Both the position numbers and the translations under genes were made by a program. A stretch of 43,395 nucleotides of DNA from IMG/VR virus record IMGVR_UViG_3300028832_002797. The stretch is one strand, 5' to 3'. The DNA comes from a virus. Taxonomy: Duplodnaviria > Heunggongvirae > Uroviricota > Caudoviricetes. Below, in pieces: positions 9,414 through 38,006 of the stretch. Each line of letters opens with the position of its first letter. The first letter of the stretch is position 1. The notes beneath the pieces are model-generated. The model saw only the letters and a program-made list of their open reading frames with translations, ran no database searches and had not been told where the DNA came from.

Positions 9414-9763
9414 TTAAAGTAATTATTACAATAGGTGGAAATATCGTTGTTGAATATGTTGTAACTGAACTTATCAGTGTAATTATAGATTTTGTTAGAG
9501 CTACCCGAATTACACAAAGTCAGACTGATGGTATAGGTAACAACGTTTTGTATATAGAATTCAACTATAAAAGTAAGAATAGCCGTGAAAACTATGGTAA
9601 CATAACTTTACCTTTCGGACACTTTGCCGAGAAAGACCAAGAAGTCTATTTAACTGATGGCCACAAAAATTATTATTATAAAGACATTATGGAAAATCCC
9701 GAAAAGTTCAAAGCCATAATAACCAATAAACTTATGGTTGAAACCATCGATAGCGTATTATGA
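9410..9763 (+). CDS. Array paralog
   Basis: Ends YYYKDIMENPEKFKAII...ETIDSVL. Confidence 0.85.
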   Translation: MIKVIITIGGNIVVEYVVTELISVIIDFVRATRITQSQTDGIGNNVLYIEFNYKSKNSRENYGNITLPFGHFAEKDQEVYLTDGHKNYYYKDIMENPEKFKAIITNKLMVETIDSVL

Positions 9764-10029
9764 CCGTTATATTAAAGCTTAATAAAAAAATTCACAGAAA
9801 AGACTACAAAATAACGAAAATTATTAAGTTTTTTGCAGCCGGTATACATTCGTATATTCATTTTATTGATGATGCCGGAAAAGATTTACAGTTCAATTTT
9901 GATGTATATTGTAGTATTGAAGTCGATGGTATAAAACACGATTATATTGAATATAGGGAAAATCCTGCAAAGTTCGCAGCCATGATTGAGAATATTCAAA
10001 ATATATTTGTATTAGAGGCCTTACCGTGA
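9760..10029 (+). CDS. Array paralog
   Basis: Ends SIEVDGIKHDY...ENPAKF...VLEALP. Confidence 0.85.
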   Translation: MTVILKLNKKIHRKDYKITKIIKFFAAGIHSYIHFIDDAGKDLQFNFDVYCSIEVDGIKHDYIEYRENPAKFAAMIENIQNIFVLEALP

Positions 10030-10361
10030 TTCTTGTACATGATCTTGATTGCCCGACTCGTGTTCTTAGAGTAAAGAAAATTTTAACCTTTACTGTTTTT
10101 GAAAATCCGGTACCTTATCCAATTAATGAACTTTCAGAACCGCCGACAATGGTTGTAAATTTTGAATTTGTTGGAAATGCTGATACATATTATGACGCTA
10201 CGTATTATTTTTCAATGAGCGAAGATTCTGTAAAAAATCTTTTTATGATTACTATAAATGGCAGAACGTTTGAACTGAAAGATATTATAGAAAATCGAGA
10301 ACTGGTAATATCACTTATTGAACATGAAAAAGACCTTCAGGAAATTGAGGCTTTACCATGA
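10026..10361 (+). CDS. Array paralog (GTG start)
   Basis: GTGA overlap; ends ITINGRTF...EIEALP. Confidence 0.85.
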   Translation: MILVHDLDCPTRVLRVKKILTFTVFENPVPYPINELSEPPTMVVNFEFVGNADTYYDATYYFSMSEDSVKNLFMITINGRTFELKDIIENRELVISLIEHEKDLQEIEALP

Positions 10362-10654
10362 TATTGTATCTTTTACAGAATAAACATCACTATGGTACCA
10401 AGGTAGAGTTTACTCATTTGAGCAGCATTGAAACACTCAATTTCCACGGCGATGATTTTACGGTTATTACTCTTGTCGATAAATACGGAAAAACTCATAG
10501 ACTGCCTATCGGAAAAGAATCGGTAATCAGGGTTGATTCCGGTCCTATTGATTTACCAGCAGAATATGAATTTAGAGAGATGACTGAAAACCCGGATGCA
10601 TTCGTAGCAATGATTAATAACATAGAAAATGAAATTGCTCTCGACCGTCTTTAA
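10358..10654 (+). CDS. Array paralog
   Basis: Ends ...ENPDAFVAMINNIENEIALDRL. Confidence 0.85.
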   Translation: MILYLLQNKHHYGTKVEFTHLSSIETLNFHGDDFTVITLVDKYGKTHRLPIGKESVIRVDSGPIDLPAEYEFREMTENPDAFVAMINNIENEIALDRL

Positions 10655-10679
10655 CCCGTTGACAAACGGGTTATTTTTT
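10652..10679 (+). terminator. Terminator hairpin overlapping a -35 box
   Basis: AACCCGTT-GACA-AACGGGTT followed by ATTTTTT. Confidence 0.6.
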
Positions 10680-10687
10680 ACTATATT
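10659..10687 (+). promoter_or_regulatory. Sigma70-type promoter TTGACA-N17-TATATT
   Basis: ATG at 10695, 7 nt after the -10 box. Confidence 0.8.
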
Positions 10688-10694
10688 AAGATTG

Positions 10695-11015
10695 ATGATT
10701 CGGATTATTCAAGAAGAGAATATACATGGGAATTGGACTCAGCGTCGTCAGTTCAAAGTAAAATCAGCAAAGCTGGTCACACAAACTGTACGTAGCACAT
10801 ATGATACCGATCTTATTGTTCAGTTTGAATCCTACAATAACAGTCGTCGAGATACCTATGGATTTGAATCTGCTGAAACATGCTTACAATATAGGTTGTT
10901 AATAGAAATAGGCGGAGAAGTCTATGGACGTAAAGAACTTATTGAAAATGTCGATAAATTCAACGCCATGCTAGAAAACGAGTCAGTAAAATGCGCCATT
11001 GAGAGATTGTCATGA
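10695..11015 (+). CDS. Array paralog
   Basis: Start revised to MIRIIQEE; ends LIEIGGEVY...CAIERLS. Confidence 0.85.
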   Translation: MIRIIQEENIHGNWTQRRQFKVKSAKLVTQTVRSTYDTDLIVQFESYNNSRRDTYGFESAETCLQYRLLIEIGGEVYGRKELIENVDKFNAMLENESVKCAIERLS

Positions 11016-11335
11016 TTAGAGTTAAGTGTTATCATAAATCTAGTATTAATGGGCGTTGGGAACAAATCAGAGCTTATCCAGTATATCAGCCTGTACTTAA
11101 ATATAGTGAACTTAGTAAAGATTATTTAACAATCACTTATGTAGATTTTTATAAAAATCCAAATAGTTTAATGTTGTTCGATAGAGAAGACATTCGTATG
11201 CAAGTAGCTCTGGATATTGACGAATTAAATATTCATAAAGAATATACTATAGAGGAATTAAAAACTGATTTTGACAGAGTTAGTGCGTTATTTGATAATG
11301 AATATATGAAAGATATTTTGGAAGCCTTACCATGA
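11012..11335 (+). CDS. Array paralog
   Basis: Ends ...DFDRVSALFDNEYMKDILEALP. Confidence 0.85.
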   Translation: MIRVKCYHKSSINGRWEQIRAYPVYQPVLKYSELSKDYLTITYVDFYKNPNSLMLFDREDIRMQVALDIDELNIHKEYTIEELKTDFDRVSALFDNEYMKDILEALP

Positions 11336-11673
11336 TTAAACTTGTACGTGAAGCATATTATAAAGATGGACAGCACTCGACGCGAATTTATTATTTACTC
11401 GAATCGTATGTTTTTCAAACTGTGACCAATAGGCACAAATATCTTTGTATAGCATTTACATATTTTAAATCAGAACTTGATGATGACTATAAGGAAAAAC
11501 CGGACTATTGTTTTTTGGGTAATGTGTCTAATCCTAGCGGCAACAGCTATAATACTTGGATTGAAATCGACAATGTAAAATATACAGATAAAGACATTGA
11601 AAAGAATATGGAAAAGTTCAATACTCTCTTAACACAGAAAACAAACGAAGAAGTTTTGAATAGATTGGACTGA
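11332..11673 (+). CDS. Array paralog
   Basis: Ends WIEIDNVKY...EVLNRLD. Confidence 0.85.
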   Translation: MIKLVREAYYKDGQHSTRIYYLLESYVFQTVTNRHKYLCIAFTYFKSELDDDYKEKPDYCFLGNVSNPSGNSYNTWIEIDNVKYTDKDIEKNMEKFNTLLTQKTNEEVLNRLD

Positions 11674-11674
11674 T

Positions 11675-11956
11675 ATGGTTATAGTTAAGATAGTTGAACC
11701 TAACATGAATACCAAATATTTGGAAGCAACTAATGTTAGATTAGATGCCGTTACTAAAGCTGACATTTATCTTCATTATAGAATTCCAGATTATCTTGGT
11801 GAACAGGCTATTTACTTAACCTTAAATACCAAAGATGTTTCTTTGATTATAAACAATGTTGAATATCTTCACAATACGCTTATAAACGATTATGATAAAA
11901 TTAACGCTCTATTGGAAGAACAACGGATAGAAGAAGCTATCGACTCTTTACCTTAA
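11675..11956 (+). CDS. Array paralog
   Basis: Ends LIINNVEY...EEAIDSLP. Confidence 0.85.
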   Translation: MVIVKIVEPNMNTKYLEATNVRLDAVTKADIYLHYRIPDYLGEQAIYLTLNTKDVSLIINNVEYLHNTLINDYDKINALLEEQRIEEAIDSLP

Positions 11957-11963
11957 TTCTCGG

Positions 11964-11992
11964 TTGACAAATGTTTCATACTTTGCTATATT
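11964..11992 (+). promoter_or_regulatory. Sigma70-type promoter TTGACA-N17-TATATT
   Basis: ATG at 11999, 6 nt after the -10 box. Confidence 0.8.
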
Positions 11993-11998
11993 GTGTAT

Positions 11999-12358
11999 AT
12001 GAGCAAGGTTATTCTTTATAATGTCTTTAAAATTATGAATAATAGCATTGTAGGCAGTGTAGATTACAAATGGACTCCAAAATACGAAGTAAAGAACGCA
12101 AAACTTGTACTGTACGAGAATAACGGTTATTATATAGAGTACGAAAAATACAAACTAATAGGTGATAATAATTCATTTAATCAGTTATCAACACCCAGAT
12201 ATTTTAGACTTGGGGATGTATATGGTACTAATATGGTAGGCGCAGTCGAAGTCGATGGTGAAATGTATAATATTAATCGTATTGCGGAAAATCCGGAAGC
12301 CTTCTCAGCAAAATTAGAAAACCTAGAACTTGAAGATTGCATAGACCAACTACCATGA
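11999..12358 (+). CDS. Array paralog
   Basis: Ends VEVDGEMY...ENPEAF...DCIDQLP. Confidence 0.85.
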   Translation: MSKVILYNVFKIMNNSIVGSVDYKWTPKYEVKNAKLVLYENNGYYIEYEKYKLIGDNNSFNQLSTPRYFRLGDVYGTNMVGAVEVDGEMYNINRIAENPEAFSAKLENLELEDCIDQLP

Positions 12359-12696
12359 TTAAATTATTGTTTAAAGATTATACTGTTAATAGCGGTTATA
12401 ATGATTTGCCTATTATAAATCTCAAGGTGGAACTTGAGAGAAATATACCGAATGATTTTTTCCAGCTAAATCAAAAAGAGAGAACTGCTGTTTTGGCGAC
12501 ATTCAATTTTATTGGTGAGTCAGCACGTCAGGCTAGAAATATAGGTCGTTTCCGATATAATTCTTTTGACTATGAAAATTTTATCCAAATCGGTGAAACC
12601 ATTTATAACTATGAAGCACTTCTGGAAAATATAGACAGAATAAGCGCAATTATTGAAAAAGAAAACTTGAAGAATTCCATTGAGGCATTACCATGA
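12355..12696 (+). CDS. Array paralog
   Basis: Start revised to the ATGA overlap (MIKLLF); ends FIQIGETIY...NSIEALP. Confidence 0.85.
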   Translation: MIKLLFKDYTVNSGYNDLPIINLKVELERNIPNDFFQLNQKERTAVLATFNFIGESARQARNIGRFRYNSFDYENFIQIGETIYNYEALLENIDRISAIIEKENLKNSIEALP

Positions 12697-12941
12697 TAAT
12701 AGTAAGTCATAAAGGTAACAACTATCATCGATATATTAAAGCAGCAAGTATTCGTAAAATAGATGAATCTTTTTATACTCTTGAAATTCCAAATTATAAA
12801 AGCAATGTTTATATTCTTAAATATAATGTCATTACTATTGATGATAAAGAGTATGATATTAAATTTATCAATGAAAATTTTGAACGTATGAAAGCAATTA
12901 TTGAAAATGAATCTAACAAATATCTTTTGGACCAACTATAA
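12693..12941 (+). CDS. Array paralog
   Basis: Ends ITIDDKEY...YLLDQL. Confidence 0.85.
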   Translation: MIIVSHKGNNYHRYIKAASIRKIDESFYTLEIPNYKSNVYILKYNVITIDDKEYDIKFINENFERMKAIIENESNKYLLDQL

Positions 12942-13309
12942 TGTTATACGTCGTCATTAGAAAAAGAACTAATAAAGAACGTCCTATTGAATATATCAAA
13001 TTTCCGATTCTTGAACTTATTTGGATAACAAAAGTTGTTCGCCTTACAAGTACATGTCAAACGGATATTTTCGGACAAGACGGTATCGATATTAGAATAA
13101 AAACAAAGGCTCATGGTGAAATTACAGAAGCAACATTTTCCTTAGGGAAGTTTCATACTCCGATTAACTGGTTTGGATGGCAAAGAACTTGCTTTATTGC
13201 CAAAGGTAGAAAACATTTTAATTATCCGGAAATTTATAAAGATTTTGAAAAATTTGAATTAAGGCTTAAACAGATGTTATTAGAAGACAAGATTGAGGAA
13301 TTACCATGA
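12941..13309 (+). CDS. Array paralog
   Basis: Ends ...FNYPEIYKDFEKF...DKIEELP. Confidence 0.85.
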   Translation: MLYVVIRKRTNKERPIEYIKFPILELIWITKVVRLTSTCQTDIFGQDGIDIRIKTKAHGEITEATFSLGKFHTPINWFGWQRTCFIAKGRKHFNYPEIYKDFEKFELRLKQMLLEDKIEELP

Positions 13310-13575
13310 TTGAAGTATTTGATGGACTTTTTAATAGACGTGTACGGAATGTTAGTCTTATAAAACTAGAAGATAAAGATGGCTATTTGTTTAAAGCCAA
13401 CTATTTTGATTGTGGTAACTTATATAATACCTGTTCATATTTTCTTGCGTTCAATCATAGTTATATTAAAATTAACAACACCAAATATGATTATACCTCA
13501 ATGCGTGAGAATTTTGACAAAATCCAAGTTATATTAGAAAAAGAAAATATTAAAATGGCCCTTGAGAAACTATGA
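13306..13575 (+). CDS. Array paralog
   Basis: Ends YIKINNTKYDY...MALEKL. Confidence 0.85.
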   Translation: MIEVFDGLFNRRVRNVSLIKLEDKDGYLFKANYFDCGNLYNTCSYFLAFNHSYIKINNTKYDYTSMRENFDKIQVILEKENIKMALEKL

Positions 13576-13850
13576 TTAAGATTTTTAATAAACCTAAAAA
13601 AGAAACAGTTATAAGTATTATCAGCTTTAATAAACGCGTTTTTGAAAACGGCGCAGAATATTTTATTGCTGAATATATTCCTGAAATGGAGTATTATTCA
13701 GTTCATTGTTATTTTTCAAATCTTCAACCGTACAACTATATTGAAATAAACAACAGAAGATTCAACTTTCGAAAAATGCTTAGGCATTACGAAAAACTTC
13801 AGGCGTTGATAGAACAAGAAGAAACTCTTAGGGTAATCAACAACCTCTAA
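13572..13850 (+). CDS. Array paralog
   Basis: Ends YIEINNRRF...ALIEQEETLRVINNL. Confidence 0.85.
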   Translation: MIKIFNKPKKETVISIISFNKRVFENGAEYFIAEYIPEMEYYSVHCYFSNLQPYNYIEINNRRFNFRKMLRHYEKLQALIEQEETLRVINNL

Positions 13851-13882
13851 AAACTGACACACAAAACTACGGAGTAAACTTT

Positions 13883-14149
13883 ATGCCCAAATCTACAAAT
13901 ACTGACTTAATTGTGTTTTCTATCTGCTCTGTCCTTGTCATTGCAGTTATATGTATGTTCGCTGCTGACCGTATCATATATGGACCTGCTCCAGATAAAG
14001 CACCGACTACCTATACTACTTCTGACGGATTGCATCATGGATGCAAATTGGCCGTATATGATGGACTAATCCATAGAACTACATGGACATTGACCTGTCC
14101 TGACGGATATATCCAGCATAATGGTAACTATACCATAGAACGTCCGTAG
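13883..14149 (+). CDS. Small protein with an N-terminal membrane anchor
   Basis: GGAG SD; hydrophobic LIVFSICSVLVIAVICMFAA; lacks the array motif. Confidence 0.75.
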   Translation: MPKSTNTDLIVFSICSVLVIAVICMFAADRIIYGPAPDKAPTTYTTSDGLHHGCKLAVYDGLIHRTTWTLTCPDGYIQHNGNYTIERP

Positions 14150-14164
14150 CGTGCATTTATATGG

Positions 14165-14193
14165 TTGACATCGGCCCTATATTTTGCTATATT
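14165..14193 (+). promoter_or_regulatory. Sigma70-type promoter TTGACA-N17-TATATT
   Basis: ATG at 14201, 7 nt after the -10 box. Confidence 0.8.
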
Positions 14194-14200
14194 GCATAGC

Positions 14201-14551
14201 ATGGTAGAAGTTATCCATAAAGTTAAATATAATTACGGTAAAACCGAATTTTCTTCGAATATTCTTACCGAACTTCGTTTTTTGATAGTTCATGAGGATA
14301 GTTTATCAGCATACATAGTAAATCCCACACCCGAAAAACATTATGTTGATATTGGATTTTCTACTAAGAACGGTTTAATAAATTTAGCCATTGGTAAGTT
14401 CGATATTACAGGTGTCAAATCATGGGAAGTCTATGTTCTCATTGACGGTGTTAAATACGAATATGAATATATAGCCTACAACCCTGAACGTTTTAAGGCT
14501 TTGGTAAACCAGTCGTTGTTAACTTCCATGCTGGAGAAAAACTTATGCTAG
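14201..14551 (+). CDS. Array paralog
   Basis: Start revised to MVEVIH; ends VLIDGVKYEY...NPERFKALV...MLEKNLC. Confidence 0.85.
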   Translation: MVEVIHKVKYNYGKTEFSSNILTELRFLIVHEDSLSAYIVNPTPEKHYVDIGFSTKNGLINLAIGKFDITGVKSWEVYVLIDGVKYEYEYIAYNPERFKALVNQSLLTSMLEKNLC

Positions 14552-14865
14552 AAGTATGGCAAGCAACATATAATTTCGGATATTTAAAATATCCGCTGGC
14601 TAAGCTTATCGACTTGGAACCCGATGACGATTACGGTATTACAGATACTGGCAAATGTCTGTTAAGACAGCGTTTTCGTATAAGGTTCTATGATAATCTG
14701 GATAAAAAACATACGATCCATTTTGATGGAGTCCGTCAGCAAGAAAACATTATCGTAAATGGCAGAAAGAAATACGACTATTTCTCTATAAAGAAAGATC
14801 CTATCAAATTCAGACTGTTTCTGGAACAGGAAATTACACGCTCTGCAATCGAGGCACTTCCATGA
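14545..14865 (+). CDS. Array paralog
   Basis: Ends IIVNGRKKY...SAIEALP. Confidence 0.85.
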   Translation: MLEVWQATYNFGYLKYPLAKLIDLEPDDDYGITDTGKCLLRQRFRIRFYDNLDKKHTIHFDGVRQQENIIVNGRKKYDYFSIKKDPIKFRLFLEQEITRSAIEALP

Positions 14866-15167
14866 TTAAAGTTATCGACGGATTTGGACTTAAACATCAA
14901 GTAGCAAGTGGCTCATTACACAAGATGTATTCTATATACAACACAAATGAAGTAGTTGGCTACAAATTCGTATATGTTGTGGAAGGTCGAGCGATACGAC
15001 AAGAATGCCTCTTCAATACAAAAACTTGGGCACACGAGTTTCAAAATGCCATCGATATTAACGGTAAGGTTTTTCATTACGAAGACATCGATAAGAACTA
15101 CGGAAGTATTAAGGTCATGATTGAACAGGATTTTATGGCCAGTATGATTGATAGGAATTTGCCATGA
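14862..15167 (+). CDS. Array paralog
   Basis: Ends IDINGKVFHYEDI...MIDRNLP. Confidence 0.85.
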   Translation: MIKVIDGFGLKHQVASGSLHKMYSIYNTNEVVGYKFVYVVEGRAIRQECLFNTKTWAHEFQNAIDINGKVFHYEDIDKNYGSIKVMIEQDFMASMIDRNLP

Positions 15168-15472
15168 TTAATATTTGTAGAAATGGAATAATTGAAACCG
15201 TACAGCCAATGACGCTCGTCGTGACCACGACACGTTATGAAAAAGGCTTGGTATTAAAGTGCAGGCCTTCTTATACATTGTATTATCGTAACAAGGATAA
15301 TCTTATAAGGTATATAGACTTTTCAGTATATGACAAAAATGCTCGAAAAGAGAATTATCTGGAAATAAAAAATATAAGGTACAAATATCCAGGCATTAAT
15401 AGAAATCCTGAAAAAATCAGAATGCTTATTGAAGAAGATCGGCTCAACGATTCTATTGAGGCTTTACCATGA
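15164..15472 (+). CDS. Array paralog
   Basis: Ends YLEIKNIRYKY...DSIEALP. Confidence 0.85.
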   Translation: MINICRNGIIETVQPMTLVVTTTRYEKGLVLKCRPSYTLYYRNKDNLIRYIDFSVYDKNARKENYLEIKNIRYKYPGINRNPEKIRMLIEEDRLNDSIEALP

Positions 15473-16245
15473 CAAAGTTTAGACCTTGCATAGACATACA
15501 TGACGGTTGTGTTAAGCAAATCGTCGGTAGTTCCCTAGGTTCAAATTTAGTAACAAATTTCGAATCAGACCGTTCTCCGGCCTGGTTCGCTGAACTGTAT
15601 AAGAAAGACGGAATTACTGGTGGTCATGTTATCATGCTCGGTAAAGAAAATCCCGAACTTGCAAAAGAAGCGTTGAGAGCATATCCTGGCGGACTTCAAG
15701 TCGGCGGCGGAATAACTTCCAAGAACGCACAGGAATATCTGGATGCTGGCGCTTCGCATGTTATCGTTACCAGTTGGGTTTTCCCTGACGGTAAACTGAA
15801 CATAGACAGACTCGAAACCCTTTCGAGAATTGTTGGCAAGGAACATCTCGTACTCGATTTGAGCTGCAAGAGAATAACGGAACCTGAAGATATTCCCGCA
15901 TGGAAAGTCGCAATCAATCACTGGCAGACACTTTCAGATACAGAAGTATTACCGGAAACACTTGAGCTTCTTTCTGATTACTGTTCTGAGTTTCTTATAC
16001 ATGCAGCGGATTACGAAGGTAAGCAAAACGGCATGGATGAAGAACTTATAATGCTCATGGCCGAATATAGTCCGATTCAATGTACCTATGCGGGAGGTGC
16101 AAAGTCTATTAAGGACCTAGAACGCTGCCAGAGGCTCTCAAACGGAGCCGTGGACCTCTCTATCGGTTCAGCCCTAGACTTATTTGGGGGCAAGGGAATT
16201 AAGTACACAGAGTGTGTTCGGTTCAATAAAGGAGCAGGGCGATGA
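15469..16245 (+). CDS. hisA: ProFAR isomerase, His6/eukaryotic-type HisA
   Basis: Motifs MTKFRPCIDIHDGCVKQIVG, LQVGGGI, VIVTSW, LDLSC, FLIHAADYEG, YAGGAKS and IGSALDLFGG match the yeast His6-type family. Confidence 0.93.
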   Translation: MTKFRPCIDIHDGCVKQIVGSSLGSNLVTNFESDRSPAWFAELYKKDGITGGHVIMLGKENPELAKEALRAYPGGLQVGGGITSKNAQEYLDAGASHVIVTSWVFPDGKLNIDRLETLSRIVGKEHLVLDLSCKRITEPEDIPAWKVAINHWQTLSDTEVLPETLELLSDYCSEFLIHAADYEGKQNGMDEELIMLMAEYSPIQCTYAGGAKSIKDLERCQRLSNGAVDLSIGSALDLFGGKGIKYTECVRFNKGAGR

Positions 16246-16544
16246 TTAAAGTATTTAATTCAAAGAAGCTCTACACTTTAAGTAATCCGGAATTCCACAT
16301 AGTTAAGCAGGACTATCTGGATACGAAAAATTATTTTGAATTTTACAGAATTGCATTCTATTATGACTGTATGCAAGTATTAGTCGATTTTTCTGACCGT
16401 TCTTCGATTGAAGAGTTTATCAACTATGTCGAAGTGAACGGGAAAATTTTTAAGTATAAAGATATTCATAAAAATCCGGAAAGATTTAGAATGTTATTGG
16501 AGCAGGACAAACTTATTGATACTATTGATAGGAACTTGCCATGA
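16242..16544 (+). CDS. Array paralog
   Basis: Ends YVEVNGKIFKYKDIHKNPERF...TIDRNLP. Confidence 0.85.
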   Translation: MIKVFNSKKLYTLSNPEFHIVKQDYLDTKNYFEFYRIAFYYDCMQVLVDFSDRSSIEEFINYVEVNGKIFKYKDIHKNPERFRMLLEQDKLIDTIDRNLP

Positions 16545-16834
16545 TTCAGGTTTATTTGTCTGCACTCAATAATTTTATCCCGGTAAGAAATCCGGAGTTA
16601 TGTAAAGCAATAGATAGTTTTACCAATAGCGAATATTTTCGTTTAACTGCCATTGACCCAACCGGACGTAAGTTTTATATCGATTTTTCCCCGTCATTAT
16701 GGAATAATGACAACTTCATCGATATTGATGGTAAAAAATTTAGATATTGTGAGATTGAAAAGAATCCCGATTACGTTATTGCGTTAGTGGAACAAGAAGC
16801 GAACCGTTGTGCAATAGAAGATCTTTCAGGTTAA
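16541..16834 (+). CDS. Array paralog
   Basis: Ends FIDIDGKKFRY...CAIEDLSG. Confidence 0.85.
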   Translation: MIQVYLSALNNFIPVRNPELCKAIDSFTNSEYFRLTAIDPTGRKFYIDFSPSLWNNDNFIDIDGKKFRYCEIEKNPDYVIALVEQEANRCAIEDLSG

Positions 16835-16859
16835 CATTTGACTTAAATTAATTTATATT
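16831..16859 (+). promoter_or_regulatory. Sigma70-type promoter TTAACA-N17-TATATT
   Basis: The -35 box contains the upstream TAA stop; ATG at 16870. Confidence 0.65.
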
Positions 16860-16869
16860 TAGAGGTACT

Positions 16870-17196
16870 ATGATTACATTATATGACCATGAAGACAATA
16901 AACTGTATGAAGTCAAGAAACTTACTGGTTTTTTGATTGACGATGACTTTTTCGCTAGACTCGCGGATGGCGATAGACAATGTGTAACAAAAAATTATGA
17001 AGAAATAATTTTGGATTTTGTTGACCAGTACAATAAGGAACGAAAGTTCTATATAACCGATTCCAACAAAGATAGAGTTACTATCAAAATAGATGATGTC
17101 GAATATTCCTATGATTATATCACGAAGAACCAAGATTGGGCAAATTCCGTATTTAACCATCAAATGGGTCTTATAGCAGTTGAGCAACTTCCATGA
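16870..17196 (+). CDS. Array paralog
   Basis: Ends IKIDDVEYSY...IAVEQLP. Confidence 0.85.
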   Translation: MITLYDHEDNKLYEVKKLTGFLIDDDFFARLADGDRQCVTKNYEEIILDFVDQYNKERKFYITDSNKDRVTIKIDDVEYSYDYITKNQDWANSVFNHQMGLIAVEQLP

Positions 17197-17480
17197 TTAA
17201 CGCATACAATGCCTGTCTTGATAAATTACATAAAGATATAAAACAACCGAAACTTGAAAGTTTCCCAGTTGATAATTATGCGGAACCTATCAGCTTTGCT
17301 ATTTATTTCGATGAGGACAAAGAACATAAGACTTTGGTTTTTTCGGGTAAGCGTTCACAAAATTATCTGGAAATAAATGGAAATAAATACTGGTATACAG
17401 ATATGTTGACCCGTTGGGACCTTATACAAGCGCTTATTGTCCAAGAAAACAACATAAAAGCTATCGATGCCCTTCCATAA
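17193..17480 (+). CDS. Array paralog
   Basis: Ends YLEINGNKYWY...KAIDALP. Confidence 0.85.
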   Translation: MINAYNACLDKLHKDIKQPKLESFPVDNYAEPISFAIYFDEDKEHKTLVFSGKRSQNYLEINGNKYWYTDMLTRWDLIQALIVQENNIKAIDALP

Positions 17481-17484
17481 AGGG

Positions 17485-17513
17485 CTGACATATACACCCC
17501 AATTTACTATATT
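17485..17513 (+). promoter_or_regulatory. Sigma70-type promoter CTGACA-N17-TATATT
   Basis: ATG at 17521, 7 nt after the -10 box. Confidence 0.7.
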
Positions 17514-17520
17514 GGGGTAT

Positions 17521-17805
17521 ATGGTAAAGTTTATTCAATATAACAAACTACACGATGAATATATCACATGGCCTTCTAATTATGTAGAATTGGCCGGACA
17601 CAACAATTCCGGCGAAATTCTCGTTGACGTTTATTATGGTGATAAACATACCTACCAGAAAGACCGTTTCATTTTGAAACCTAAGTGCTATTTTGAAATT
17701 GATGGAAAGAAGTATACCAGTTCCTACGTAAAAGCCCACGAACAAGAAATGAAAATTTTTCTCAAACAGGTCCGAGAAGCCTCTGTACTCAATATCCTAG
17801 ACTAA
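17521..17805 (+). CDS. Array paralog
   Basis: Start revised to MVKFIQ; ends YFEIDGKKY...VLNILD. Confidence 0.85.
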   Translation: MVKFIQYNKLHDEYITWPSNYVELAGHNNSGEILVDVYYGDKHTYQKDRFILKPKCYFEIDGKKYTSSYVKAHEQEMKIFLKQVREASVLNILD

Positions 17806-17806
17806 C

Positions 17807-18085
17807 ATGATTCGTTTCAGATATACAAATTGGGAAGGCGTAGTTACGGAATATACGCTGAAAGAACCGGTAATAGGGCATAATCATTATGACGATTTGT
17901 CTCTATATTGCTATGCTGAAGATACTATGGGATATACACGACATGCCTGGTTGATAGATTCGACTTCTGAACTTTTTATTAATGATAAGAAATATGATGG
18001 GGACTATATTCTGGAAAACTGGAAAGAAATTAACATTCTGATAAAACAATCCGAAGAAATCGAATGCTTAGAGGTACTTGACTGA
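17807..18085 (+). CDS. Array paralog
   Basis: Ends LFINDKKY...ECLEVLD. Confidence 0.85.
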   Translation: MIRFRYTNWEGVVTEYTLKEPVIGHNHYDDLSLYCYAEDTMGYTRHAWLIDSTSELFINDKKYDGDYILENWKEINILIKQSEEIECLEVLD

Positions 18086-18375
18086 TGATTAAAGTTTATG
18101 ACCATAGATGTGGAACACTGTGTGAGGTTAGGAGCTGTTCTCTTGTAAAAGCCGGCGAATGTTTTGACTTAACCTATTCTTACTGGGTAAGTCCGAAGAA
18201 TTTCCAGGTTAAACATCTTACGTTTTCGCCTTACATTTACGAGGAACGAAACTCTAATTATATCGAAATAAACGACATTAAGTACAAATACGATAATATC
18301 CGTAAAAGATTCGGACTTATCCAAGCCCTTATCGAAAAAGAAAGTATCATATCTGCAATAGAGGAACTTCCATGA
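18085..18375 (+). CDS. Array paralog
   Basis: Ends YIEINDIKYKY...SAIEELP. Confidence 0.85.
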   Translation: MIKVYDHRCGTLCEVRSCSLVKAGECFDLTYSYWVSPKNFQVKHLTFSPYIYEERNSNYIEINDIKYKYDNIRKRFGLIQALIEKESIISAIEELP

Positions 18376-18644
18376 TTAAGTATACTTTCAAACGTATTTC
18401 TGACAATAAATTTCAAACTATCGAGATTTGTAATGCCTTAAAATTAGCACAATATAATGGCAGTGTTTTTATTACGATTTCTGAAACTAGCTTTCTTCAA
18501 TTCGACAAATATGACGATGATGGGAGTTTCCTTGACATTGGCGGGAAAATCTATACGAAAGACCAAATTATGGAAAATCCAGAAAAAGTCTTCGTAGCCA
18601 TGAAAAATGACATTCTCAGTACCGAAATCGAGGCCCTTCCATGA
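18372..18644 (+). CDS. Array paralog
   Basis: Ends FLDIGGKIY...ENPEKV...EIEALP. Confidence 0.85.
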   Translation: MIKYTFKRISDNKFQTIEICNALKLAQYNGSVFITISETSFLQFDKYDDDGSFLDIGGKIYTKDQIMENPEKVFVAMKNDILSTEIEALP

Positions 18645-18964
18645 TTAAAGCATACAACTCCCAAACGCTTACACATTATGACAAAATCATAGAGGCAAAG
18701 CTGTACCCAAATCCCAAATACAAAAATGACAAGTTTGATACCTATACCTATATAGACCAGTTTACCCTGGAATTCAAGACAGACATTAACGAAAGGTCCG
18801 ATTTTATTAATTTTTCCAAATATAGTATGGGCGAATGCTATATCAGCAATATCGTAATCAACGATAAAGAATATACCTACATGGAAATCCGTAAGGAATA
18901 CGAACACCTCCAGGCCCTTATCGAAAGGGAAATAAACCTGACCAATATTGCCCTCCTACCCTAA
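18641..18964 (+). CDS. Array paralog
   Basis: Ends IVINDKEYTY...ALIERE...NIALLP. Confidence 0.85.
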   Translation: MIKAYNSQTLTHYDKIIEAKLYPNPKYKNDKFDTYTYIDQFTLEFKTDINERSDFINFSKYSMGECYISNIVINDKEYTYMEIRKEYEHLQALIEREINLTNIALLP

Positions 18965-18970
18965 AAAGGG

Positions 18971-18999
18971 CTTACATACCCCCTTAAATTTGCTATATT
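18971..18999 (+). promoter_or_regulatory. Sigma70-type promoter CTTACA-N17-TATATT
   Basis: ATG at 19006, 6 nt after the -10 box. Confidence 0.7.
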
Positions 19000-19005
19000 A
19001 GGGGT

Positions 19006-19290
19006 ATGGTCTTCCTTAAAACTATAACTTCATTTGATCATCCGTTCATGGACGTAATCAAGGATATTGTCAATATAGCCTATTCGCCATATTCTTTTAG
19101 ATTAGATTACAAAAATGCTGCGGGACATCAAATCCGGTCCACCTTCACCAAGGGTATGGACCCTGAAACACATAATATAAGGATAAATGACGATACCTTT
19201 TCCCCTAAGGAAATGGTAGATAACCCTGAAAAGATGGCAGCTTTGATAAGACAGGATTTGACAAATTCGGCAATAGAGGCCCTTCCATGA
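19006..19290 (+). CDS. Array paralog
   Basis: Ends IRINDDTF...DNPEKM...SAIEALP. Confidence 0.85.
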   Translation: MVFLKTITSFDHPFMDVIKDIVNIAYSPYSFRLDYKNAAGHQIRSTFTKGMDPETHNIRINDDTFSPKEMVDNPEKMAALIRQDLTNSAIEALP

Positions 19291-19574
19291 TTACCATAAT
19301 ATATGACAAAAAGAAAAACATTAAAGAGAATGTTCTGGAACCGGTCAAATTCGTCGAGGATGCCGTATATCTGAATTTATTCTATCATAAGCTTAACTAC
19401 CAGCAACGTGAAATTTCAGATTATATAGGTTTTAACAAGTATACTAAAAACGGCTATCTTCTAAAAATAGGAGATAAAGTATTTAAACCTGCGCAAATCA
19501 TAGAAAATCCAGAACATATCCTGGCCCTGATGAAACAAGACTTCTTAAAACAAGCCCTCGAGGAACTTCCATGA
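19287..19574 (+). CDS. Array paralog
   Basis: Ends LKIGDKVF...ENPEH...QALEELP. Confidence 0.85.
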   Translation: MITIIYDKKKNIKENVLEPVKFVEDAVYLNLFYHKLNYQQREISDYIGFNKYTKNGYLLKIGDKVFKPAQIIENPEHILALMKQDFLKQALEELP

Positions 19575-19900
19575 TTACATTCCATAATTCCGGTTATTCT
19601 TTTCGGATGTACGGGAAGCATATGGACTCGCCCGCCCTTATCTATGCCAAGGGTACTATTTTTGTCCCGTATTTTGATAAGTCAGATCCTATCGGCTGTC
19701 TCGCGATGTACCAAATGTTTAGTAGCATATTCTATACAGGCTATTACATATATTCGAATGAACCCGAAAACTATCTGCAAATAACCAACAAGGAGATTGA
19801 CCAGAAGTTTTACTATGAGGATATTGTCAAAGACATAGACAAGCTGAACATCCTAATCGAAAAGGAAAAGCTCGGAGATGCCATCGAGGAACTGCCATGA
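19571..19900 (+). CDS. Array paralog
   Basis: Ends ...FYYEDIVKDIDKL...DAIEELP. Confidence 0.85.
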   Translation: MITFHNSGYSFRMYGKHMDSPALIYAKGTIFVPYFDKSDPIGCLAMYQMFSSIFYTGYYIYSNEPENYLQITNKEIDQKFYYEDIVKDIDKLNILIEKEKLGDAIEELP

Positions 19901-20178
19901 TTTCAGTATTTAACGGATTTACATATATTAAACACGCGAATATCATCGTTTCGTATTTTATTCGATATAGGGACGGTTTTAAGTTGACCTATACCATCCC
20001 CGGACGCTCTGAACATTTTGCCCAGTATTTCGAAAGCACAGACCCCTATGACAGCGTGTCCTATATGACGATAAACGGGAAGAAATACGACAGCGACAAC
20101 ATGGAAAAGAACTTTGACAGAATCCAAACGCTCTTAACCCAGGAAAGCAATTTAAGAGCAATCGAGGCCCTCCCATGA
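19897..20178 (+). CDS. Array paralog
   Basis: Ends YMTINGKKY...RAIEALP. Confidence 0.85.
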   Translation: MISVFNGFTYIKHANIIVSYFIRYRDGFKLTYTIPGRSEHFAQYFESTDPYDSVSYMTINGKKYDSDNMEKNFDRIQTLLTQESNLRAIEALP

Positions 20179-20459
20179 TTAAATTCATCCAGCAAAGCTC
20201 TATCATCCGTTCCGAAACGACGGTAAAGGACGTCTACGGCTACAGGTCCATGTACAACGGCGTCTATTTCTATTACCATACCCAACACGACAACGAGGCC
20301 TGGGAACTCTTCTCGAACACCCCCGCACACGACAACCATTTTATCCAGATAGGAAATAATGCCTACCAGGCCAAAGATATAATAAAAAATCCAGAACGTA
20401 TCTTCGCCCTCATGCAGCAGGATTCAATCGACGAAGCACTCGATAAACTTCCGGGTTGA
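20175..20459 (+). CDS. Array paralog
   Basis: Ends FIQIGNNAY...KNPER...EALDKLPG. Confidence 0.85.
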   Translation: MIKFIQQSSIIRSETTVKDVYGYRSMYNGVYFYYHTQHDNEAWELFSNTPAHDNHFIQIGNNAYQAKDIIKNPERIFALMQQDSIDEALDKLPG

Positions 20460-20484
20460 CATATACCCTACATTTTACTATATT
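20456..20484 (+). promoter_or_regulatory. Sigma70-type promoter TTGACA-N17-TATATT
   Basis: The -35 box contains the upstream TGA stop; ATG at 20492. Confidence 0.8.
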
Positions 20485-20491
20485 ATTGACC

Positions 20492-20815
20492 ATGATGATA
20501 CTTCTCCTCACGGTCTTTATATCCTATGCCCTCTACCTCGGTTTCAAGGACGTCATGAAATTAAAGAAAGACGCCTTCATGATGGCCATGCAGGATCTCC
20601 CCTATACCCGCCCAGAAATCAAGAAAAGCCTCTTCGAATACCTGGAAGTAGCAAACCTTAACTCCCTCAGGCAGGAAAGGAAACAACTCTTGTTCCCCGG
20701 AAACCTCTGGGAACAAGGCTACAGGACAGCAAACCAGGTCATAGACGACCTCCCCAGGCTCATAGCCCGCGAACGCAATATCGAAACCGAATATATCATC
20801 GAGAAACTTCCATGA
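20492..20815 (+). CDS. Membrane-anchored protein with an array-type C-terminal tail
   Basis: N-terminal TM segment MMILLLTVFISYALYLGF; ends YIIEKLP with an ATGA overlap. Confidence 0.8.
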   Translation: MMILLLTVFISYALYLGFKDVMKLKKDAFMMAMQDLPYTRPEIKKSLFEYLEVANLNSLRQERKQLLFPGNLWEQGYRTANQVIDDLPRLIARERNIETEYIIEKLP

Positions 20816-21108
20816 TTCATGTATATAACGGTAAACTATATACCAATGTTGTAAATCCAAAGCTGGAATATGTTACAGATAGTATCTTCCCACCTTATAA
20901 TCCATATTACTGGATAACTTTCTGGGAAGGCCCTAAAGCACAATTTACGAGGGTAGACTTCCGAGATTTCTCCGAGGAAATAAATAACAATTATATCGAA
21001 ATCAATCACCAGCAATTCAAATATAAAGATATAAAAGAAAACCTGGAATATATCCAGGCCCTAATCGAAAACGATGTTAACCAGGAAGCTATCGAGACCC
21101 TCCCATGA
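20812..21108 (+). CDS. Array paralog
   Basis: Ends YIEINHQQFKY...EAIETLP. Confidence 0.85.
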   Translation: MIHVYNGKLYTNVVNPKLEYVTDSIFPPYNPYYWITFWEGPKAQFTRVDFRDFSEEINNNYIEINHQQFKYKDIKENLEYIQALIENDVNQEAIETLP

Positions 21109-21410
21109 TTACCATGGACTACATATCCTCCAACAATAAACCGCAATCTATTAACGTTATAGACCTACATTCCCTATATCATAAAAAAGCCCTGTTCAGG
21201 GACGGTTCCGACTGTGTAATCTTTGGTATTAAAAGCGACCATAACTATAACATCCTATATACCAATTCGAAATTCTATCCCGAAAATACCCAGTATATAC
21301 ATATCAATAAGACAGTATTCAATATCAAAGAAATCATGGAAAACCCGGATAGAATATACTCTTTAATGCAACAAGAACTATTAAGAGATTCTATAGACAA
21401 TTTACCCTAA
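21105..21410 (+). CDS. Array paralog (last member)
   Basis: Ends YIHINKTVF...ENPDR...DSIDNLP. Confidence 0.85.
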   Translation: MITMDYISSNNKPQSINVIDLHSLYHKKALFRDGSDCVIFGIKSDHNYNILYTNSKFYPENTQYIHINKTVFNIKEIMENPDRIYSLMQQELLRDSIDNLP

Positions 21411-34434: not shown

Positions 34435-35262
34435 TTAATCCAGAGGGAATTCATCCCGTGGAAGTTTCTTCTTCAAACGTCTTAGCGCCTTGTTCTTTAT
34501 CTGTCGTACACGTTCTCTCGAATAGCCTGTCAGTTCGCCGACATCATTCAACGTGTAATCCCTACCGCCTGTACCGAAGAACATATTCAGAATATCATTT
34601 TCCTTCGTTGTGGTATTGGTCATCACATATTTCTTTAACTGCTTGTTCCTGTTGGAAATCAAAAACTTTTGCTGTGCATTCTGCTTGGGGTCAGGTACAG
34701 TATCATTCAATGTATGATCTGCTTCAACTGTCATTCCGTGGTCACGCAGACTAACGGGCGTATCAAGTGACATAGGTTCGAAGACTCGCTGTACCAGCTG
34801 CATCGTATCTAATTCGGATTTGTTTGTAACAAGTTCTTCAAGCGGAAGGCCGGTCTCATTCATCTTACGCTGGAGTTCGAAGTAACGGTACTGTTGGTTA
34901 GCCGGGACATGAATCATTCTGGATTTTCCGATAATGAAAGCCAGCATGCTCTGTCGAATCCACCAGACTGCGTATGAAATGAATCTAATGTTACGGGAGG
35001 AATCGTATGTATTGATAGCATGGTACATACCAGCCATGCCTTCGTTAATAAGATCTGCTACGCTGTAATTCTTTCCGACATATTTCTTAGCACATGATAC
35101 GACAAATAATATATGGCTTTTGGCTATCTTTTCGACCGCGGCCTGTCTAATACGTTTATCCTTAGTCGTTTTGATAATGGAGAAACACGCTTCTTCCTCC
35201 TTATCTGACATACGACGCAATGGCCTTACGTCCTTCATGAACTGTTCAAACAAATATTCCAT
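34435..35262 (-). CDS. Phage-encoded sigma70-family RNA polymerase sigma factor (regions 2-4)
   Basis: FVVSCAKKY, DLINEG, RFISYAVWWIRQ, SLDTP and TLNDVG..GYSRERVRQI..KALRRL. Confidence 0.92.
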   Translation of the reverse strand: MEYLFEQFMKDVRPLRRMSDKEEEACFSIIKTTKDKRIRQAAVEKIAKSHILFVVSCAKKYVGKNYSVADLINEGMAGMYHAINTYDSSRNIRFISYAVWWIRQSMLAFIIGKSRMIHVPANQQYRYFELQRKMNETGLPLEELVTNKSELDTMQLVQRVFEPMSLDTPVSLRDHGMTVEADHTLNDTVPDPKQNAQQKFLISNRNKQLKKYVMTNTTTKENDILNMFFGTGGRDYTLNDVGELTGYSRERVRQIKNKALRRLKKKLPRDEFPLD

Positions 35263-35600: not shown

Positions 35601-36449
35601 TTATACTGCCACGGGGAACTTAATTGTAGGATGACTCTGATAATCCTTCAATTCGAAATCGGTATATTTCCAATCCCAGATAGTCCAGTTAGGATCATCA
35701 GCATTGAGGATTTCGACTGACGGAGGTGTCATAGGCTCGCGCTGTAACTGCTCCTTCACACCATCGATCTGATTGACATAGATGTGGGAATCCGCAAAGA
35801 AACCAATAACCTTACCAGGCTTCATCTTCACCTGCTTGCAGATTAGAGTAAGAAGCATTGCATAAGAGGCCAAATCGTATGGCACACCGAGAGGGAAATC
35901 AGAGCTGCGCTGGTTCCACAACAGATCGACGTATCCTTCATTCGACAACAGCTGGAAACAGTAATGACACGGAGGCAAGGCCATCTGGTCTAACTGCTGT
36001 GGGTTCCATGCAGAAACAAGCATACGACGATCGTTCGGGTTGGTCTGTAACGTATGAATCACGTTTTTCAACTGGTTAATCCCTGAATCGTTAAAGTTGT
36101 TCCACTGGTAACCGTAGATTTTACCCAGGTCGTTTTCCGCAGCCATCTTGGCCTTGGTAGCTTCGTCGTTGCCGTAAGGAACCTTGGCGGGATTAGCCCA
36201 CTCATCCCAGATGTGACAATTACGTTCCTTAAGGAATTCTTTGTTGGCGATGCCCTTGATGAACATCTCGAGTTCGGCGCAGATGTTCTTGAGGCCCATC
36301 TTCTTGGTGGTAAGCAACGGGAACTTACCCGTAGACATGTCGAATTCAATCATTGAGCCGGAAATGGAAAGCGTGTCTACACCAGTACGGTTATGCTTGA
36401 GCTTGCCTTCCTTGAGAATCCTGCCGAGTATGTCAAGATACTGTTTCAT
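35601..36449 (-). CDS. thyA: Thymidylate synthase-family enzyme with an N177D-type substitution (possible dCMP methylase/hydroxymethylase)
   Basis: FPLLTTKK, IWDEWA, MALPPCH, QRSSDFPLGVPYD and DSHIY; Asp192 aligns with E. coli Asn177. Confidence 0.9.
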   Translation of the reverse strand: MKQYLDILGRILKEGKLKHNRTGVDTLSISGSMIEFDMSTGKFPLLTTKKMGLKNICAELEMFIKGIANKEFLKERNCHIWDEWANPAKVPYGNDEATKAKMAAENDLGKIYGYQWNNFNDSGINQLKNVIHTLQTNPNDRRMLVSAWNPQQLDQMALPPCHYCFQLLSNEGYVDLLWNQRSSDFPLGVPYDLASYAMLLTLICKQVKMKPGKVIGFFADSHIYVNQIDGVKEQLQREPMTPPSVEILNADDPNWTIWDWKYTDFELKDYQSHPTIKFPVAV

Positions 36450-36450
36450 A

Positions 36451-36966
36451 TTATTTCTCCATATTCTTAATCAGAGCTTCAATGAATCTCTGGTTGATGG
36501 TTTCATGGGATGCATAGTGATCGCCTTCGTTGACTTGAATCATCATCTTGTTCAGTTTCGATTCCTGGAACTTCTTGATAAAGTCTTCTTGTTCTTCCTG
36601 TCTACGATTGAAGTCATGGGACAATCCGTCATCCTGCATGATGCTAAAGTCTGTGGTGTATAAAAGAATAAAGATCGTGTTCTTCAGTTCGTCACGGTAT
36701 TCATCTTCCATGATGCGAACATAGCTTGGGTTGTAATCCCTGTAACGCGGTGCATAGATTAACTCATCCCAGTGTCCACGGTTAAATACTACATGGTCCT
36801 GGTATGCAAGTGTCATAAAGTAATCCAGGTACTGCGACTTAGACCATAACAGTGGATCCTTATCCTTTGGCGGTTTATTAAGGTGTATCTGCTTATAGCC
36901 GTTAAGTACACGTTCAATAAAGGTATTCTTGCCGATGCGATCGATGCCAGTAACTACGAAATTCAT
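36451..36966 (-). CDS. P-loop nucleoside monophosphate kinase-like protein
   Basis: VVTGIDRIGKNT and VFNRG.WDELIY; directly upstream of the ThyA-like gene. Confidence 0.7.
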   Translation of the reverse strand: MNFVVTGIDRIGKNTFIERVLNGYKQIHLNKPPKDKDPLLWSKSQYLDYFMTLAYQDHVVFNRGHWDELIYAPRYRDYNPSYVRIMEDEYRDELKNTIFILLYTTDFSIMQDDGLSHDFNRRQEEQEDFIKKFQESKLNKMMIQVNEGDHYASHETINQRFIEALIKNMEK

Positions 36967-38006
36967 TAAGACTGCTCCTTATAACTGTTATAGAGTTCAG
37001 TAAAGCTGTTATACAGTTCATCCTTGTTCAACGGTGTTTCCAGTTGGTCAAGGTATGTCTTGAACAGCGACATAATATTATTAAGTGTTTCACCCGCCAG
37101 TTCGACATCATCTGTCATGTCCTCAGAAGGAAGGATATTGATATTGACTGGGTAAGCTGGTTTCATCTTCTCCAGCTTATCAACCAGCGCGTAGATCTTC
37201 TTGGTCTGGTCAGATAGTTCGAACGGTATTTCCAAGTCGACAACATTACCCGTAATAACATTCATATCCACGTCAGGATATGTATGCTTAGTAAACTTGA
37301 TTGACTGTGTGTTCTCGTGAAGAACGTCTTCGTTGGTGTCCAGGTCTAATATGTGATAGCCCTTGGTGTCACCACGGTCTATACGAGTAAGCTGGTATGG
37401 CGAGCCGAGATACGTAATAGACTTTCCTTTCTCGTACTTCCTGGTATAGCCGTTATGGTAATGGCCTGAATAGACATGATCTATATGGTCAAGCAACGTG
37501 GAAGCCATGAGACCGGAATCCGAAAGTCGACCGCCCATGTTAAAGCCGATGATGTCTGCATGGCAGAAACAGTACTCGTGGTGGCCAGGTACAATCTCCT
37601 CGAACTTTGAGTAGTCAGTAATCCACGGCAACATGAGTATATTATGTCCGTCAAGATTAATCTCTGTCGGCTTCTCATACACGGTGACGTGTGGCATCAG
37701 GTCTAAAACCTTGAGGCTGTTGATCTCTGTCGTCGTGGTCATGTACATGTCGTGGTTACCGACTATGACATGTATGTCAAAATCCTTCAGCGTATTCTTA
37801 AACAGATCGATGACCACGTTGTCTGTCTGGACGTTGACAGCCTGTCGAGTATCGAAGACGTCACCCAATATGAACAGCTTAGTAATCCCTGAAGCCTTGA
37901 GTTCGGGAACCAGCTGGTCAGTAAAAAACTTAAGTTGTGAACGCTGGAACACTGAATCTGATTTTTTAATTCCGGCGTGCAAGTCTGCGATCAATGCTAT
38001 TTTCAT
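36966..38006 (-). CDS. gp47: Recombination nuclease subunit, T4 gp47/Mre11/SbcD-like
   Basis: ADLHAG, GDVFD, GNHD, CHAD and SGHYH. Confidence 0.92.
   Translation of the reverse strand: MKIALIADLHAGIKKSDSVFQRSQLKFFTDQLVPELKASGITKLFILGDVFDTRQAVNVQTDNVVIDLFKNTLKDFDIHVIVGNHDMYMTTTTEINSLKVLDLMPHVTVYEKPTEINLDGHNILMLPWITDYSKFEEIVPGHHEYCFCHADIIGFNMGGRLSDSGLMASTLLDHIDHVYSGHYHNGYTRKYEKGKSITYLGSPYQLTRIDRGDTKGYHILDLDTNEDVLHENTQSIKFTKHTYPDVDMNVITGNVVDLEIPFELSDQTKKIYALVDKLEKMKPAYPVNINILPSEDMTDDVELAGETLNNIMSLFKTYLDQLETPLNKDELYNSFTELYNSYKEQS

Follow-up and report, generated by a model that had tools for sequence, protein, structure and literature searches.

Does a phage ThyA homologue that carries aspartate, where canonical thymidylate synthase carries the asparagine that selects deoxyuridine monophosphate (dUMP), act on deoxycytidine monophosphate (dCMP) instead, and does the phage then build 5-methylcytosine (5mC) into its DNA? 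This question is raised by a ThyA-family gene (P0001; positions 35601–36449, minus strand) in the Caudoviricetes record IMGVR_UViG_3300028832_002797, of which we analysed a stretch of 43,395 nucleotides (hereafter the window). From comparison of its sequence with those of homologues and of characterised enzymes, we consider it likely that the product is a dCMP C5-methylase (5-methyl-dCMP synthase) that feeds 5mC into phage DNA.

An aspartate at the pyrimidine-specificity position

The open reading frame (ORF) is intact and encodes a protein of 282 amino acids (aa) that belongs to the ThyA superfamily. The Pfam family PF00303 (Thymidylat_synt) spans the whole protein (residues 2–282 against profile positions 1–266, E 9.8e-92) with 307 bits against a curated cut-off of 24.3, the PHROG match is phrog_160, thymidylate synthase (E 3e-98), and among solved structures the nearest are thymidylate synthases of bacteria and protozoa (E about 1e-64). 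The protein also clears the NCBIfam thymidylate synthase model TIGR03284, scoring 271.7 bits against a cut-off of 108. Its identity is 42% to E. coli ThyA (K-12 reference sequence, drawn from NC_000913), 27% to the thymidylate synthase homologue of phage XP12, and 23% to the dCMP hydroxymethylase gp42 of phage T4.

In E. coli ThyA, Asn177 hydrogen-bonds O4/N3 of dUMP. The equivalent pyrimidine-specificity residue of the window protein is Asp192 (codon GAT, 35874–35876, minus strand), which lies in the motif QRSSDFPLGVPYDLASY starting at residue 180, so that the asparagine expected of a canonical dUMP-specific thymidylate synthase (EC 2.1.1.45) is replaced. The alignment to E. coli K-12 ThyA is gap-free across this motif. 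A PPCH motif starting at residue 159, within ALPPCH, places the catalytic cysteine at Cys161 (codon 35967–35969, minus strand), the equivalent of E. coli Cys146 and invariant in all aligned homologues; the 31 residues separating Cys161 from Asp192 equal the spacing between Cys146 and Asn177.

The aspartate is conserved well beyond the window. Among the 120 best homologue clusters from a collection of 5.8 billion proteins, 116 show Asp here, at identities as low as about 65%, and the other four show Asn (P0112, P0115, P0116 and P0117; 60–63% identity). When residue 177 was compared between groups, all 135 sequences of the Asn group carried Asn and all 116 members of the clade carried Asp. The Asp codon is GAC in the IMG/VR relatives L001–L008 and GAT in the window and in L009, while the nearest Asn-type relatives have AAT or AAC. 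That the synonymous codons vary while the amino acid stays fixed shows that the aspartate is under selection. A sequencing error or a pseudogene is ruled out by the conservation among homologues and by the synonymous GAC codons of the relatives.

Replacement of Asn by Asp at this position turns the E. coli and L. casei enzymes into dCMP methylases (Hardy & Nalivaika 1992; Liu & Santi 1992, as summarised in PMC8670742). The N177D change is likewise tied to a preference for dCMP in work on metaviromes, where position 177 is the one most associated with cytosine modification and where MetaGPA found Asp177 enriched in modification-positive contigs (PMC8670742).

A first-pass annotation, made from the letters of the window, had anticipated much of this. 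Its assignment of Asp192 to the GAT codon at 35874–35876 in a gap-free motif, and of the catalytic Cys161 to a position 31 residues before it as in E. coli, was reproduced here, and its description of the protein as ThyA-like rather than T4 gp42-like is borne out by the identities of 42% and 23%. Its premise that Asn-to-Asp shifts ThyA enzymes to dCMP agrees with the literature on laboratory mutants and on natural phage enzymes (PMC8670742; bioRxiv 10.1101/2024.12.05.627091), and the worry it raised, that the GAT codon might be an error, is removed by the Asp found in 116 of the 120 clusters and by the GAC and GAT codons of the relatives.

The remaining active site and the predicted product

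We compared the window protein with E. coli ThyA at 13 positions (E. coli numbering 21, 58, 80, 94, 143, 146, 147, 166, 169, 177, 207, 209 and 264). The window protein reads R, E, W, Y, L, C, H, R, D, D, H, Y and V, and E. coli ThyA reads R, E, W, Y, L, C, H, R, D, N, H, Y and I; position 177 is thus the sole non-conservative change, I264V being conservative, and N177D is the only change in the first shell. The phosphate-binding arginines (R21, R126′, R127′ and R166) and the catalytic cysteine are all present, with R126, R127, C146 and R166 forming invariant columns, and the residues of folate binding and hydride transfer (E58, W80, Y94, H147, D169, H207 and Y209) are the same as in E. coli ThyA. 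The C-terminal tail is also kept (FPVAV, compared with APVAI in E. coli), whereas in the alignment the XP12 enzyme and T4 gp42 stop short of it. Truncation of this C-terminus in L. casei thymidylate synthase abolishes the hydride-transfer step, so that the intact tail would speak further for a methyl over a hydroxymethyl product. Some clade-specific substitutions lie beyond the first shell, among them those at E. coli positions 61, 149, 159, 183 and 210, and these may tune the enzyme.

Two published residue marks bear on the product: an acidic residue at 143 characterises the hydroxymethylases T4 gp42 and MilA, and D169N characterises the flavin-dependent 5-hydroxy-dCMP synthases (PMC13326640). 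At the first of these positions the window protein keeps a hydrophobic residue, Leu158 (codon 35976–35978, minus strand; the Leu of ALPPCH), where gp42 has the D of SDFMC; at the second it keeps Asp184 (codon 35898–35900, minus strand; the Asp of QRSSD), which rules out a 5-hydroxy-dCMP synthase of the RB69 gp48 type. What it shares with XP12-type 5-methyl-dCMP synthases is Asp177 combined with neither an acidic residue at 143 nor Asn at 169. Equivalents of Asp177, Leu143 and Asp169 together make up the signature predicted for a dCMP methylase. Enzymes with the N177D change have been examined directly: the XP12 enzyme and five of seven metavirome enzymes make 5-methyl-dCMP (5mdCMP) (bioRxiv 10.1101/2024.12.05.627091), and the PaMx74 enzyme, too, has been assayed and makes it.

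Recurrent switching between asparagine and aspartate

To place the enzyme among its homologues we searched 1.84 billion representatives exhaustively with HMMER, which gave 13,360 matches, and built a FastTree phylogeny of 118 sequences. In this tree, which was built quickly, has local supports only and is weakly rooted on gp42, the window protein falls within a clade with 98% support that is almost entirely Asp-type and is nested among canonical Leu-His-Asp-Asn ThyAs. The successive sister branches of this clade are Asn-type (P0116, P0112 and P0162), and the XP12 enzyme and T4 gp42 lie on long branches far from the window protein. The tree requires eight changes between Asn and Asp, at least six of which are forced by well-supported branches. 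Asp was found in 16 of 149 representatives; 11 of these 16 have Leu143 and His147 as in the window protein, and the others have Ile143 or a residue other than His at 147, the latter as in XP12. The switch to the dCMP type has thus arisen several times, and the window lineage is a td-like ThyA converted in place rather than kin of the XP12 enzyme. Membership of the XP12 enzyme's own clade was ruled out by the 27% identity and the distant placement in the tree.

Many of the Asp-type ThyA relatives carry an insertion of roughly 150–270 aa where the L. casei enzyme has its "small domain", after about residue 122 of the window protein; examples are P0119, P0077 and P0073 (428–444 aa) and P0159 (550 aa). 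Pfam sees the two ThyA halves in these proteins and no domain inside the insertion. The 428-aa subclade has in addition Met in place of Gln165 (FNMRSVD).

Companion genes in complete relatives

The phage has no close cultured relative, and a megablast search of the 30–42 kb part of the window against 50,697 phage records gave no match. Replication and recombination genes in the window form a T4-like module, which comprises SbcC/SbcD-like gp46/gp47, a gp32-type single-stranded DNA-binding protein, a DnaB-type helicase, a primase, a clamp and clamp loader, a RecJ-like DHH phosphoesterase and a sigma-70-type factor. The window ThyA sits on a contig of 162 kb, and fellow members of its 90% cluster sit on contigs of 415–431 kb. 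The related IMG/VR genomes include two, of 415,750 and 424,163 bp, that have direct terminal repeats and are estimated to be 100% complete, and a third of 411,059 bp at 98%; the closest relative loci share 85% nucleotide identity with the window over 12.5 kb. Given these large relatives, we assign the window to an uncultured clade of T4-like megaphages of ~420 kb. A search of open-access texts returned no description of cytosine replacement in this megaphage group.

Companion-gene content was read from three relatives, G001–G003 (complete genomes of 415–424 kb with terminal repeats), instead of from the window. Each has exactly one PF00303 gene, of the Asp form, and a search of the complete relatives for ThyX found none. 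Each also has one gene of the dCMP-deaminase family, whose closest solved relatives are the dCMP deaminases of cyanophage S-TIM5 and T4, and one gene for dihydrofolate reductase (DHFR; E about 1e-56). The three genomes thereby show the complement of XP12-type phages, namely DHFR and a deaminase of the dCMP family with no other ThyA or ThyX. The relatives further encode a 262-aa dUTPase_2 protein whose best PHROG is phrog_173, the same as that of the T4 dCTPase/dUTPase gp56, and which matches gp56 directly by BLASTP (E 2e-7). Searches of the complete relatives for MazG, PRA-PH, trimeric dUTPase and DNA C5-methyltransferase found none, and a Tet_JBP search gave no match, as was also the case for its controls. 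The first-pass annotation had suggested looking for a second ThyA or ThyX and for a dCTPase; the complete relatives thus offer a sole, Asp-type ThyA without ThyX, together with a d(C/U)TPase of the gp56 family.

In the 415 kb relative G001 the genes for the deaminase homologue (164 aa) and for DHFR (168 aa) share 4 nt (L024, 926–1923, minus strand) and are probably translationally coupled. A 269-aa ORF comes after this pair.

Reductive methylation oxidises tetrahydrofolate (THF) to dihydrofolate, and hydroxymethylation does not. In these genomes the Asp-type enzyme has no ThyA homologue beside it, so that the presence of DHFR, which a methylase that produces dihydrofolate needs, favours a methylase. 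For the deaminase, 5-methyl-dC nucleotides are the better explanation as substrate, since no phage-encoded enzyme would consume dUMP if it made that. For XP12-type phages it has been proposed that such nucleotides are deaminated to thymidine nucleotides (bioRxiv 10.1101/2024.12.05.627091).

A neighbouring kinase and the proposed pathway

Directly upstream of thyA lies a gene for a 171-aa P-loop kinase (36451–36966, minus strand), whose ORF stops 1 bp ahead of the thyA start codon and whose start codon in turn overlaps the stop codon of the SbcD-like gene; the kinase is translationally coupled to thyA and in the same operon. Its Pfam match to Thymidylate_kin is below threshold (E 0.003; 17.5 bits against a cut-off of 27), and its homologues form 22 clusters that all fall within this phage group, with an invariant P-loop (G7-x-D9-R10-x-G12-K13) in their alignment. 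An AlphaFold2 model (predicted local distance difference test score 94, predicted template modelling score 0.89) has a fold like those of thymidylate and deoxynucleoside kinases: the best Foldseek matches were YorR of B. subtilis (SPbeta prophage; 3kb2 and 2axp) and thymidylate kinases, with probability 1.00 and template modelling scores of about 0.6–0.7. The order sbcD–kinase–thyA(Asp) is kept in L001–L008, where amino-acid identity to the products of window positions 35601–38006 is 77–90% for ThyA, 49–55% for the kinase and 54–62% for the SbcD-like protein. The higher identity of the Asp-type ThyA than of its neighbours indicates an unusually strong constraint on it. XP12 is reported to induce a 5-methyl-dCMP kinase activity. 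On the strength of its modelled fold and its position, the 171-aa protein is a good candidate for a deoxynucleoside monophosphate (dNMP) kinase that converts 5-methyl-dCMP to the diphosphate, and it could also be an ordinary thymidylate kinase.

We propose the following pathway. With Asp in place of Asn, the ThyA-fold enzyme would bind dCMP in place of dUMP and carry out the full thymidylate synthase reaction, in which Cys161 attacks C6, a methylene group is received from 5,10-methylene-THF, and hydride transfer then yields 5-methyl-dCMP and dihydrofolate. The coupled upstream kinase would take 5-methyl-dCMP towards 5-methyl-dCTP and hence into phage DNA, while the gp56-family d(C/U)TPase encoded by close relatives would supply dCMP and drain dCTP. 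DHFR would regenerate folate from dihydrofolate, and the dCMP-deaminase homologue would turn part of the 5-methyl-dC nucleotide pool into thymidine nucleotides, as proposed for XP12.

Two other features of the window were observed. Just downstream of thyA lies the gene for the sigma-70-type factor (275 aa; 34435–35262, minus strand), in which Pfam recognises region 2 (E 2.7e-14) and region 4 (E 1.6e-11) and which is kept in L001–L005 at about 81% identity. Further away, positions 7734–21410 (plus strand) are occupied by about 46 small ORFs in tandem, all in one direction and roughly 90–130 aa long, many with overlapping stop and start codons. All-against-all BLASTP places 32 of these ORFs in one paralogous family (24–49% identity, E ≤ 1e-5), and by this comparison the array is a very large tandem multigene family.

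Weighing the alternatives

Several points weigh against a dCMP methylase that modifies phage DNA. We infer from sequence which substrate the enzyme uses, what it makes and that virion DNA contains 5mC; the genes for the deaminase, DHFR and d(C/U)TPase are those of relatives and none of them lies inside the window; and a deaminase, a ThyA, a DHFR and a kinase are also the classical set of the pathway to thymidine monophosphate (dTMP). Prediction of the product from single residues is imperfect as well, since the proven XP12 methylase has Asn143 and Pro147. Leu143 is described as "thought to" exclude water (PMC13326640), and the window protein keeps His147, at the position that is the second most modification-associated in MetaGPA (PMC8670742). 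Two of the seven predicted metavirome methylases gave no 5mdC in an in vivo assay (bioRxiv 10.1101/2024.12.05.627091). Finally, we had considered palindrome and dinucleotide statistics of the window as evidence of modification and dropped them, as they are compatible with cytosine modification yet not diagnostic: the 4-mer palindromes CCGG, GGCC, GCGC and CGCG are near expectation, the observed-to-expected ratio is 0.66 for GATC and 1.14 for CpG, and the EcoRV site GATATC occurs 0 times where a maximal-order Markov model expects 14.9. A possible reason for the absence of GATATC and the depletion of GATC is restriction by host systems that work despite cytosine methylation.

Of the other explanations, the one that survives best, although we consider it unlikely, is a dCMP hydroxymethylase, in which water would capture the exocyclic methylene intermediate to give 5-hydroxymethyl-dCMP and THF as in T4 gp42, possibly followed by decoration of 5-hydroxymethylcytosine. 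The Asp at the specificity position is common to gp42, but position 143 holds Leu instead of the Asp or Glu of the T4-like hydroxymethylases and MilA. Predictions from residue 143 are not fully reliable, as the Asn143 of XP12 illustrates, yet the C-terminal tail is complete where gp42 is truncated in the alignment, and identity to gp42 is 23% compared with 42% to E. coli ThyA. The T4-like replication module and the gp56-family pyrophosphatase of the relatives would suit a hydroxymethylase; the DHFR that accompanies the sole ThyA homologue would not, as a hydroxymethylase leaves THF unoxidised. Where the first-pass annotation had left methylase and hydroxymethylase side by side, the assignment to a dCMP-type enzyme is therefore supported and the choice between the two products can be narrowed, with the methylase clearly better supported by Leu143, Asp169, the tail and a DHFR occurring with a sole ThyA. 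The annotation's further proposal, that the modified DNA evades restriction or CRISPR, is an inference like the 5mC itself.

We also regard as improbable a route to dTMP without DNA modification, in which all 5-methyl-dCMP would be deaminated to dTMP, the kinase would be a thymidylate kinase and virion cytosine would be ordinary. The relatives do encode a dCMP-deaminase homologue and lack any further ThyA or ThyX, but the d(C/U)TPase of the gp56 family that they also encode suggests that dCTP is actively removed. Thymidylate kinases are the closest folds of the kinase, and deamination of 5-methyl-dC nucleotides to thymidine nucleotides is what has been proposed for XP12-type phages; however, natural N177D enzymes accompany modified cytosine in every studied case (XP12 and PaMx74), MetaGPA shows enrichment of Asp177, and a detour through 5mdCMP has no obvious gain over methylation of dUMP unless 5mdCTP is wanted.

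A retained thymidylate synthase, which would still methylate dUMP usefully despite Asp192, alone or beside dCMP, and serve mainly to supply dTMP, is very improbable: everything but residue 177 is canonical, including the His147 that contacts O4 of dUMP through water, the TIGR03284 cut-off is passed (271.7 bits against 108) and the classical partners dCMP deaminase and DHFR occur in relatives, but Asn-to-Asp makes dCMP methylases of the E. coli and L. casei enzymes (as summarised in PMC8670742), and an Asp fixed across the clade with Asn in the sister lineages points to a maintained functional switch and not to drift.

Comparison with known systems

A dCMP methylase would have its closest functional counterpart in the XP12 thymidylate synthase homologue (QNN97214.1 in MT664984) and its kin in PaMx74 and metaviromes. 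The two share the ThyA fold, the catalytic cysteine, Asp177 and Asp169, the XP12 genome has a dCMP-deaminase homologue and DHFR as do the megaphage relatives, and the predicted product is again 5mdCMP. They differ at residues 143 and 147, which are Asn and Pro in the XP12 enzyme but Leu and His in the window enzyme, and in the C-terminal PVAI/V tail, which the XP12 enzyme lacks and the window enzyme keeps; in the phages that carry them, a 64 kb Xanthomonas siphovirus that is the textbook case of a 5mC phage as opposed to a ~420 kb T4-like megaphage clade; and in gene order, since thymidylate synthase, deaminase and DHFR genes are contiguous in XP12, whereas in the megaphages thyA stands beside the kinase with deaminase and DHFR tens of kb away.

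The laboratory mutants E. coli ThyA N177D and L. casei thymidylate synthase N229D resemble the window enzyme in having Asn-to-Asp as the sole first-shell difference on a canonical ThyA background; the window form, however, is natural, clade-wide and selected, with extra substitutions in outer shells. T4 gp42 shares the superfamily, the Asp at the specificity position, the T4-like genomic background, the action on a mononucleotide before replication and the need for a kinase and a d(C/U)TPase. Unlike the window enzyme, it carries Asp in place of Leu143 and its C-terminus is shortened, its products are 5-hydroxymethyl-dCMP and THF, and T4 has a separate canonical td besides gp42 where the megaphages have a single ThyA homologue. 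The flavin-dependent 5-hydroxy-dCMP synthases of RB69, DLP3 and RL38JI (PMC13326640) are likewise phage-encoded ThyA-fold enzymes with N177D and a dNMP kinase partner, but they carry D169N and L143E where the window enzyme has Asp169 and Leu143.

The enzyme class and its mechanism are thus already known, from the N177D and N229D mutants, XP12, PaMx74 and five metavirome enzymes, and no new class is described here. What is new is the lineage, with its independent origin on a canonical scaffold that is otherwise unaltered, the ~420 kb T4-like genome that hosts it and the dedicated small kinase.

Implications for T4-like megaphages

A bolder scenario, which we put forward tentatively as possible without favouring it, extends the proposal to the whole uncultured ~420 kb clade. 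These phages would have made their only td-type ThyA into a dCMP methylase independently of XP12, would replace all cytosine by 5mC before replication, and would obtain thymidine nucleotides solely through deamination of 5-methyl-dC nucleotides, a complete rewiring of pyrimidine metabolism with no step from dUMP to dTMP; theirs would then be the largest known genomes built with a non-canonical base.

If the dCMP methylase proposed here is correct, the single Asn-to-Asp switch known from laboratory mutagenesis would have been used repeatedly in nature on a ThyA scaffold that is otherwise unaltered, and pre-replicative substitution by 5mC would reach T4-like megaphages of about 420 kb. A natural dCMP methylase with a canonical backbone, together with a compact cognate kinase, would then be available for the enzymatic synthesis of 5mC-DNA. 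Abundant uncultured phages of this kind would likely be resistant to many restriction enzymes, and they would likely be misread in methylation-aware metagenomic analyses.

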